A stretch of 64,000 nt of DNA from Patescibacteria group bacterium (GTDB lineage Bacteria; Patescibacteriota; Patescibacteriia; JAQUQO01). The translations under genes and the position numbers were made by a program. Positions 20,261 through 20,503 of this stretch are shown here, in pieces. Numbering within the stretch: the stretch's first letter is position 1; every line of letters begins with the position of its first letter. Location of the stretch: assembly GCA_028716045.1 (NCBI GenBank), contig JAQUQO010000001.1, positions 632,961 to 696,960 on the forward strand. Direction: 5' to 3'. Under the pieces are notes generated by a model. That model had not been told where the DNA came from. It saw only the letters and a list, made by a program, of their open reading frames with translations, and did no database searches.

Positions 20261-20503
20261 TGGACGACATAGGATTCGAACCTATGACCTTCTCGGTGTA
20301 AACGAGACGCTCCCCGCCTGCCATCGCCTACCTTGCCCTTTCATTGCCGGTGGGTTCAAGAGGAGTCGAACCTCTGACCTCTTCGGTGTAAACGAAGCGC
20401 TCTAACCAACTGAGCTATGAACCCTGAAATTTGTTTAACCTTAATAACAAACTTAAATAATTAAGTATGGCGGCGGGCAAGTAACCAACTGAGCTAGTCG
20501 TCC
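20261..20503 (-). tRNA. tRNA-Val (TAC) gene interrupted in its D-loop by a 169-nt insertion. 5' half at 20482-20503, 3' half at 20261-20312.
   Basis: 5' half GGACGACTAGCTCAGTTGGTTA. 3' half GAGCGTCTCGTTTACACCGAGAAGGTCATAGGTTCGAATCCTATGTCGTCCA. Joined, they give a perfect 74-nt cloverleaf with a fully paired acceptor. Confidence 0.5.
20351..20424 (-). tRNA. tRNA-Val (anticodon TAC), intact. Lies inside the insertion of the split tRNA-Val.
   Basis: GGGTTCATAGCTCAGTTGGTTAGAGCGCTTCGTTTACACCGAAGAGGTCAGAGGTTCGACTCCTCTTGAACCCA. Confidence 0.9.

Follow-up and report, generated by a model that had tools for sequence, protein, structure and literature searches.

Interruptions of structural RNA genes are known from several systems. 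In archaea (Thermoproteales, Nanoarchaeum, Caldivirga), split tRNA genes and those with bulge-helix-bulge (BHB) introns are broken at non-canonical sites that include the D-loop and the T-loop, with several interruptions per gene; G+C-rich complementary sequences unite the halves, and intervening sequences akin to one another are found at different positions of the tRNA. In Patescibacteria, or Candidate Phyla Radiation (CPR), group I introns that interrupt tRNA genes have been reported only at anticodon-loop sites (35/36), where they are missed by standard annotation and are polymorphic in presence and absence (PMC13011429). Unclassified short insertions that lack open reading frames (ORFs) occur in CPR rRNA genes (PMC11270868), and the rRNA intervening sequences (IVSs) processed by RNase III are likewise short, ORF-less, helix-forming insertions in loops of a structural RNA, patchily distributed among reduced genomes. 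Mobile DNA offers further parallels. Miniature inverted-repeat transposable elements (MITEs), repetitive extragenic palindromes and bacterial interspersed mosaic elements (REP/BIME), Correia elements, Rickettsia palindromic elements and the G+C-rich clusters of yeast mitochondria (PMC4478555) are non-coding hairpins with complementary termini that form G+C-rich islands in A+T-rich genomes, lie in both spacers and genes, and come and go between relatives. Integrative elements that target tRNA genes land in such a gene, resupply that tRNA and leave tRNA fragments, and in the archaeon Caldiarchaeum a tRNA-Thr gene is disrupted by a mobile element (PMC3293823). Here we describe a tRNA-Val(UAC) gene whose D-loop is interrupted by a 169-bp cassette holding a second, complete tRNA-Val(UAC) gene. 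The locus lies in a 64,000-nucleotide stretch, hereafter the window, of a Patescibacteria group bacterium (assembly GCA_028716045.1, contig JAQUQO010000001.1, positions 632,961 to 696,960). A literature search that extended to split bacterial tRNAs and to tRNA splicing in CPR turned up no account of one tRNA gene lying inside a cognate one, nor of palindromic cassettes that carry a tRNA.

The nested arrangement had been proposed in a first-pass annotation of the window, and both its coordinates and its sequences hold (Table 1). When the two outer parts, 20503-20482 and 20312-20261, are joined, they yield a 74-nt gene that ARAGORN calls as tRNA-Val(tac) and whose stems are all entirely Watson-Crick in a pair table, in agreement with the earlier description of the joined halves as flawless. 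The outer 3' part begins with GAGCG, runs through the anticodon arm, variable loop and T arm, and ends with GTCGTCCA. Outer and inner genes are identical at 57 of 74 positions, with compensatory differences in the stems, and the T arm of the inner gene, AGAGGTTCGACTCCTCT, is common to the cargo genes of other cassettes. The ends of the insertion are complementary, as had been noted, and can form a closing helix in either of two registers: CCCGCC and GCCAU pair with AUGGC(A)GGCGGG, or CUUGCCCGCC pairs flush with GGCAGGCGGG over 10 positions with one C.A mismatch. The two 14-nt ends originally quoted for this pairing, however, are both off in their boundary; the first base of the insertion is C (CUUGCCCGCC...), the 5' 14-mer being nucleotides 2-15 of the insertion, and the final two bases (GA) of the 3' 14-mer belong to the 3' exon. 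The minimum free-energy fold of the 256-nt precursor reproduces the nest, at an energy only modestly below that of shuffled sequences (z = -1.96). ARAGORN and Rfam place a forced, truncated tRNA on the outer 3' half, and the outer gene is overlooked by these standard tools.

The 5' arm of the cassette contains no promoter-like site; it has the 11-mer TTAAGGTTAAA and the motif CTTGCCC in common with the upstream leader of the outer gene. Upstream of the outer 5' half lies a consensus-matching site that is a candidate promoter for the entire nested precursor. The A+T-rich spacer between tRNA-Arg(CCG) and the outer 5' half (20525-20640, minus strand) also holds nested inverted repeats, AAATCCCCTTTCCCTTTGTAAAAGGGAGAATAAAAGAGGGATTT and AGGGATTTAACCTTAAATCCCT, and, ~28 nt ahead of the outer gene, the motif CCCTTGCCCC; the spacer could represent a remnant of another element or a leader structure.

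Each of the described systems matches this locus in part. Unlike archaeal BHB introns, the insertion lies in a bacterial host, has flush-paired ends, encloses a complete cognate tRNA, and belongs to a set of loci in which the outer genes decay. The BHB geometry (two 3-nt bulges and a 4-bp helix, or the HBh' form) is absent, as the first-pass annotation had anticipated: the insertion ends pair in a continuous helix, and neither of the exon ends, GGUUA and GAGC, finds a complementary stretch at the opposite end of the intron. A group I intron is equally absent, again in line with the earlier account, a permissive Rfam search of 20000-20900 (E up to 10) having returned only tRNA and noise. Without its inner tRNA, the insertion amounts to 57 + 38 nt, where a group I core typically exceeds 200 nt; with its D-loop site and a 169-nt length made up of a tRNA and two short arms, it differs from the group I introns of this phylum, and self-splicing is implausible. 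The closing helix and paired arms form an extended helix in a structural-RNA loop, as in rRNA IVSs, but the target here is a tRNA, a gene lies inside the insertion, and the interrupted gene is apparently lost rather than working in fragments; sister outer genes decay and inner genes stay intact, which suggests that the interrupted gene is not kept by selection. Like MITEs, the insertion is short and non-coding, has complementary termini, and belongs to a family that is polymorphic in presence and absence at an orthologous site (the LytR|LepB spacer described below). Unlike palindromic mobile repeats, however, the family shows no target-site duplication in 19 insertions (flank identity 0-2 nt) and is strongly tied to tRNA genes, at loop positions that recur, and some members carry a whole tRNA. 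Integrative elements differ in turn, being kilobases long, encoding a recombinase, carrying a partial tRNA duplicate at the att site and leaving a fragment beside the restored gene; the ~170-bp cassette is non-coding, with no ORF in its 169 bp, and supplies a whole gene instead of a 3' segment, with the new gene enclosed by the old.

To search for the architecture elsewhere, we used a pattern consisting of a Val D-arm without G22 next, a gap, any T-loop, a second gap, and the Val D-stem 3' strand with an NAC anticodon loop; chance matches expected in the window number 0. The strict pattern gave 0 matches in 185,579 species-representative genomes, a set that evidently does not include the source genome of the window. 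In JGI metagenomes it matched ten contigs, eight of which are nested (L126-128, L129, L131, L132, L133 and L135, where L-numbers denote the metagenome and assembly contigs compared with the window), L126-128 being identical to one another. Synteny look-ups of one orthologous spacer added the nests of L145-147, L148/149 and L150. Comparison with related genomes, which the first-pass annotation had put forward as a check, thus places the nested arrangement in at least nine other Patescibacteria contigs. A looser pattern (non-A21, then the Val 3' part) run on the genome collection returned, among the matches listed, 113 ordinary tRNA-Val genes and 7 bare 3' fragments, none of these 7 with a 5' half upstream. 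In viral contigs, the junction motifs yielded two hits, both within G+C-rich coding DNA and attributable to chance; the 5' junction had none.

The orthologous spacer allows different states of a single site to be compared. L131 derives from a Doudnabacteria-like genome, whose gene order LytR, spacer, LepB-HisRS-HIT-S21-YqeY is kept in relatives. The LytR|LepB spacer holds one uninterrupted tRNA-Val(CAC) in L140-142, L151-153 and L154, is free of tRNA in L143/144, contains a nest with a damaged outer gene in L131, L148/149 and L150, and contains a three-layer nest in L145-147 (including GCA_002773685.1). In the L145 nest, the outermost pieces correspond letter for letter to stretches 1-16 and 59-77 of the intact gene of L154, the middle pieces likewise to stretches 1-34 and 39-54 of the intact inner gene of L149, and the innermost gene is perfect. 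The inner gene of L150 is 100% identical to that of L131 and sits in the same resident gene (acceptor GGACCCG/CGGGTCC); this identical cargo is inserted at 21/22 in L131 and at 37/38 in L150, where the palindrome ATCCCGATTCAGAATCGGGAT stands in place of the outer T arm. In L151-L153 the apparently sole uninterrupted tRNA-Val(CAC) (spacer 224-300) has the T-loop TCCGAAT, with C55 instead of the near-universal U.

Inspection of the outer and inner genes revealed a consistent difference in integrity. Spliced in silico, the outer genes of 7/7 pattern loci are called as tRNA-Val, and only those of the window, L129 and L132 are flawless. The outer gene of L126 has an A3.C70 mismatch, that of L131 an acceptor with 5/7 pairs and an extra base, that of L133 a C27.A43 mismatch and a broken T stem, and that of L135 an acceptor mismatch; in L145, in L149 and at the tRNA-Ile and tRNA-Asp loci of the window (see below), the outer genes are reduced to fragments. 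Stems are perfect in all innermost or uninterrupted genes. Moreover, the inner anticodon equals the outer one in 7/7 pattern loci (UAC in three, CAC in three, GAC in one), a match that was not built in, since the pattern left the inner tRNA unconstrained. The simplest explanation for so strict a match is that the insertion kills a single-copy essential gene, such that only complementing cargo survives; selection of this kind argues against efficient removal of the insertion at the RNA level.

The same comparison speaks to which gene came first. Two types of Val(CAC) gene swap roles between contigs: the TACGG type forms the inner gene of L132 but the outer gene of L131 and L135, and the YTGCA type forms the outer gene of L132 but the inner gene of L131. 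The outer gene of L132 is identical to the uninterrupted gene of L140 at 67 of 73 positions, and a trailer, (T/C)TCGACTCGC, follows directly after CCA in the outer genes of L129 and L133 and in the intact gene of L140, contigs that are otherwise divergent. This likeness and the common trailer, which may be a processing or termination signal, mark the outer gene as the resident and the inner one as the incomer.

The inserted sequences themselves form a family. Most nested loci share the termini CCYGCCCGCC...GGCRGGCGGG, those of the element family reading CCYGCCCGCC...AAGGCGA(N)GC(R)GGCGGG, and in five pattern loci the insertion opens with CCCGCCCGCC directly after ...GGTTA and closes with ...GCGGGCGGG directly before GAGC; in six loci, the G+C-rich termini fall exactly at the insertion boundaries. 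Members are 16-182 bp long and ORF-less. Most of the 19 insertions are closed by a flush terminal helix of 6-10 bp; 21/22, 37/38 and 53-56 are used repeatedly as insertion sites, and a single insertion lies at 24-26. The middles of the arms are A+T-rich and unconserved; sub-terminal segments covary between the arms (TGC/GCA, TGA/TCA and CGC/GCG, as well as TTCG/CGAA, CTCG/CGAG and TACG/CGTA). Members without cargo occur at 37/38 of the L131 and L133 outer genes (CCTGCCCGCC...GGCAGGCGGG/A), with termini near-identical to those of the window's cassette, whose terminus type is found in other loci as well. Further hairpin insertions lie at 55/56, in the T-loops of the L129, L132 and L133 outer genes, the cargo-less insertions of L145 are 107-108-nt hairpins with stems of ~20 bp, and a compact 44-nt cargo-less copy sits in an intergenic spacer of L132 (~1535-1580). 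The window holds three related copies, all at tRNA loci, and there are palindromes in the L131 and L149 spacers. The latter are long and G+C-rich and lie upstream of the nests (L131 1800-1925; L149 spacer 200-400), reading, for example, GGGGCGGGCTTGTCCAGCACCACTTTT...AAAAGTGGTGCTGGGCTTGCGCCCGCCC and CCTGCCTGCCGGCAGGCAGG; nested in each other, they appear to belong to the same repeat superfamily.

None of seven 5' arms (0/7) has a promoter-like site; in the window, L129 and L132, such sites lie ahead of the outer 5' half instead. The 5' arm of L126 copies the leader of its own outer gene (38/47 identical), and the inserted DNA segment there therefore consists of a gene plus its leader. A T stem of AGAGG/CCTCT occurs in the cargo genes of the window, L132, L133 and L135, spanning UAC and CAC anticodons, and in no outer gene, which suggests that cassette and cargo descend together. 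Judged by their sequences, the elements behave like DNA repeats.

We favor, at a probability of roughly 0.7, the reading that a palindromic cassette inserted a replacement tRNA-Val into the resident cognate gene, with the inner gene read from the resident promoter and the outer gene left as a fresh relic. A promoterless, hairpin-forming cassette of 169 bp with G+C-rich complementary termini would enter the D-loop of the resident tRNA-Val(UAC) at 21/22, and the entire nest would be transcribed from the promoter of the resident gene. The closing helix would hold the fold of the cassette separate from the homologous outer halves, RNase P would free the inner tRNA at its 5' end, and RNase Z, or exonucleases, together with CCA addition would complete the 3' end. 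The inner tRNA would then provide the tRNA-Val(UAC) of the cell, and the outer halves would be a relic that is still perfect since the insertion is recent, with decay to be expected. Of the three readings offered by the first-pass annotation, the last, a duplication-insertion pseudogene, comes closest to the comparative data, and it requires additions: a palindromic cassette family, an outer gene that is the resident, and an inner gene that is the incomer. Most likely, tRNA replacement by nested insertion is an undescribed route of tRNA gene turnover and not a new form of RNA splicing.

Several observations weigh against this reading. The outer halves are flawless in the window, L129 and L132, although L129 and L132 bear a second, cargo-less insertion, and the outer exons of L129 are 100% identical to its inner gene; flawless outer genes fit a plain relic model only via recency or gene conversion. 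The insertions are intron-like in being nucleotide-precise, in lacking target-site duplications, and in lying nearly all in loops or hinges at recurrent positions, and clear intergenic copies of the element number just one. No mobilizer is evident, a Pfam scan of ~40 of the 63 larger ORFs of the window having found no transposase, RAYT, homing endonuclease, RtcB or EndA; the sole integrase-like gene of the window (50087-51118) lies 30 kb from the nest. The C55 of the L135 outer T-loop is not proof of decay, and we dropped this U55C change as a sign of decay since the apparently sole, uninterrupted gene of L151 has C55. Finally, the sample of loci is small and was obtained with a Val-specific pattern.

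The alternative that survives best is a new bacterial tRNA intervening sequence, in which a protein endonuclease cuts the flush closing helix, a ligase such as one of RtcB or Rnl type joins the exons, and both tRNAs are functional; the cargo-less members at 37/38 and in T-loops would then be ordinary introns of the same class. Precise boundaries, the absence of target-site duplications and the loop or hinge positions that recur at 21/22, 37/38 and 55/56 accord with such a process, as do the pairing of the first and last bases of the terminal helix in most members, the covariation of the arms, and the perfect spliced outer genes of the window, L129 and L132, the latter two of which each need two removals. 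Insertions in tRNA and rRNA are also known to abound in Patescibacteria (PMC13011429, PMC11270868). We nonetheless consider splicing unlikely: outer genes decay to fragments and inner genes never do, an anticodon match in 7/7 loci would be unneeded if splicing were efficient, and members of the family turn up in an intergenic spacer, at 24-26, and as the palindrome that replaces the L150 T arm. Neither BHB geometry nor a match to group I or any other Rfam family supports it, and the ORFs scanned in the window (~40 of the 63 larger ones) include no candidate endonuclease or ligase. We know of no such splicing pathway in bacteria. A more general version, in which the insertions with G+C-rich ends constitute a tRNA intervening-sequence class that is neither group I nor BHB and is excised and religated, the decayed outer genes being lost redundant copies, strikes us as similarly doubtful. 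The "non-canonical intervening sequence" of the first-pass annotation is likewise unsupported, given the decay of sister outer genes to fragments, the perfection of innermost genes, the identity of inner and outer anticodons, and the alternation of uninterrupted and nested states at a single orthologous site, though for a fresh nest such as this one it keeps a small probability.

Local duplication or rearrangement without a mobile cassette (for instance, template switching at a D-arm repeat), with the palindromes as unrelated later repeats in dispensable DNA, would account for the leader copied into the L126 5' arm, for the 11-mer that arm and leader share in the window, for the identity of inner and outer genes in L129, and for the tRNA-Asp locus, which has the look of a partial duplication in simple tandem. 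Differences at about one third of positions, fully compensated in the stems, usually separate inner from outer genes, however, and the exchange of inner and outer roles by two Val(CAC) types among genomes, the likeness of cargo genes across genomes, and the exact placement of G+C-rich termini at the boundaries of six insertions are all at odds with a local origin. A 5' half followed by a whole gene and a 3' half is, moreover, not obtainable by simple duplication, and this explanation appears improbable.

A still weaker case can be made for IVS-like fragmentation without ligation, in which the outer pieces work as a two-piece tRNA after the manner of fragmented 23S rRNA. Release of the inner tRNA by RNase P/Z, RNase III cleavage of the closing helix, or both would separate the halves, which the acceptor, D-stem and stub helices would bind together. 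The closing helix and the 7 acceptor and 4 D-stem pairs could join them, position 20/21 lies on the outer side of the tRNA elbow in the established structure, where extra nucleotides would be tolerated, and short ORF-less insertions in CPR rRNA have been proposed to be RNase III-processed IVSs (PMC11270868). The decay of outer genes and the matching of anticodons count against this scheme as well, and members at 37/38 or within the T-loop would need ligation to give a working tRNA. Outer-gene decay and anticodon matching, together with the alternation of uninterrupted and nested states at one orthologous site, also tell against the split or nicked tRNA considered in the first-pass annotation. 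To our knowledge, a functional unligated tRNA has no precedent in bacteria, and we regard this possibility as distinctly remote.

The assembly itself was compared with independent data. Logan contigs from runs SRR22315506 and SRR22315508 match the window from 20388/20390 to 24273 with 0 mismatches. The match takes in the outer 5' half, runs over the 5' junction and the 5' arm, and ends halfway through the inner gene, which answers for the 5' junction the earlier concern over misassembly. Further Logan contigs match 15723-20297 and 19221-20305, and the 3' junction (20313/20312) falls within the gap 20306-20387 between independent contigs. Logan unitigs of both runs break in the anticodon arms of both tRNA-Val copies (20297-20305 and 20388-20390), as would be expected if these tRNA 31-mers also occur in other members of the community; cassette-free or alternative alleles may be present in the same samples. 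A chimera of two tRNA-Val alleles or strains, which the breaks inside both copies and the uncovered 3' junction might invite, is very unlikely because some nine unrelated contigs, drawn from ENA, JGI, NCBI and Logan assemblies, show this architecture too, the 5' junction and entire 5' arm are identical in two independent runs, and the insertion ends are complementary to each other.

Two further tRNA loci in the window bear related insertions (Table 1). At the first, an intact tRNA-Ile(UAU) gene is flanked by a 5' arm of 25 nt (CCCGCTCATC...) and a 3' arm of 55 nt that terminates in ...GGCGGGCGGG; the adjoining relic's 16/18 identity was reached in 0/200 shuffles of an ungapped block test, and the palindrome that follows agrees in its interior with the intergenic copy of L132. 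No clean outer tRNA-Ile could be reconstructed around 34697-34621, a clean 5' exon not being found, and the 18-nt block is significant where a gapped alignment is not. A permissive Rfam search of the Val and Ile loci gave only tRNAs beyond noise. A promoter-like TTGAAA...TATACT is present near the nested gene, at ~34770-34745. The genome encodes a tRNA-Ile with anticodon UAU (34621-34697, minus strand); such tRNAs are uncommon in bacteria, where AUA is mostly read by a lysidine-modified CAU tRNA. At the second locus, a decayed duplicate of the tRNA-Asp(GUC) 5' part, including 3 nt of the tRNA-Asp leader, aligns with a score of 74.8 against 38.4 +- 4.8 for shuffles, and is interrupted by two G+C-rich sequences, CCTGCCCCGCC... 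(862-883) and the perfect 16-nt palindrome TCCCGAGTGCTCGGGA (892-907). The TCCCGA...TCGGGA hairpin type of this relic recurs in the L129 outer T-loop and in place of the L150 T arm. The window therefore contains a fresh nest (Val), an old nest (Ile), and a relic beside its replacement (Asp).

Table 1. Features of the three tRNA loci in the window (coordinates are window positions).
Feature	Position	Strand	Remarks
Outer (resident) tRNA-Val(UAC), 5' part	20482..20503	-	GGACGACTAGCTCAGTTGGTTA; acceptor 5' strand, D-stem 5' strand, D-loop to position 21
Outer (resident) tRNA-Val(UAC), 3' part	20261..20312	-	GAGCGTCTCGTTTACACCGAGAAGGTCATAGGTTCGAATCCTATGTCGTCCA; D-stem 3' strand through acceptor 3' strand and discriminator A
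Insertion cassette, 169 bp, in D-loop at 21/22	20313..20481	-	5' arm, cargo tRNA and 3' arm; no target-site duplication
Cassette 5' arm, 57 nt	20425..20481	-	G+C-rich terminus CTTGCCCGCCGCCAT, then A+T-rich stretch
Inner (cargo) tRNA-Val(UAC), intact	20351..20424	-	Rfam tRNA, 74.3 bits; ARAGORN; pair table
Cassette 3' arm, 38 nt	20313..20350	-	Ends ...GGGCAAGGTAGGCGATGGCAGGCGGG; pairs with 5' terminus as closing helix
Candidate promoter TTTAAA-16-TATAAT (10/12)	20597..20624	-	Upstream of outer 5' half; consensus match only
Nested tRNA-Ile(UAU) locus	34566..34722	-	Intact gene 34697-34621 between two arms
Outer tRNA-Ile-like relic, TAAAGCGGGGGTCAATGG	34548..34565	-	16/18 identical to positions 36-53 of inner tRNA-Ile
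Cargo-less 50-nt palindrome, CCTGCCTGCTCGCCTCGCT...GGCGAAGCGG...GGCAGGCAGG	34498..34547	-	After T-stem 5' strand of the relic
Decayed duplicate of tRNA-Asp(GUC) 5' part	847..933	+	Upstream of intact tRNA-Asp 966-1041

The host is a Patescibacteria (CPR) bacterium. Neighbors of the nest encode NusA with a bacterial N-terminal domain, BacA/UppP, and bacterial-type ArgRS, TyrRS and ValRS, NusA and BacA bearing out the bacterial host assumed at first pass; homologues of the flanking genes are labelled Paceibacterota, Nealsonbacteria, Gribaldobacteria or Patescibacteria by their sources, and the G+C content is ~41%. Synteny around the downstream UMPH-1-like gene yielded no orthologous locus for the window's nest, as its closest relatives are only ~60% identical and the gene lies in other contexts. 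Elsewhere in the window, a gene for an NYN-domain (PIN-like) nuclease (48204-48719, minus strand) adjoins that for PNPase (45896-48094, minus strand); its product is a candidate RNA-processing enzyme, and no evidence ties the gene to the tRNA loci.

For annotation, the finding means that standard tools report the inner gene along with a spurious truncated gene and overlook the relics. Were the splicing interpretation true instead, it would amount to a new bacterial RNA splicing pathway and to multi-intron tRNA genes in Patescibacteria, some of whose introns host a second tRNA. If the cassette reading is correct, Patescibacteria replace essential single-copy tRNA genes by means of a promoterless tRNA cassette placed in the resident cognate: the incomer would capture the promoter, destroy its competitor and become indispensable, with repeated rounds producing Russian-doll nests. 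Such a process would be an undescribed route of tRNA gene turnover and horizontal spread, and the cassette would rank as a selfish element of very small size whose logic resembles addiction. Because empty, fresh, decaying and multilayer states can be compared, these loci bear on the origin of disrupted, intron-containing and split tRNA genes, a question of long standing in work on archaea.

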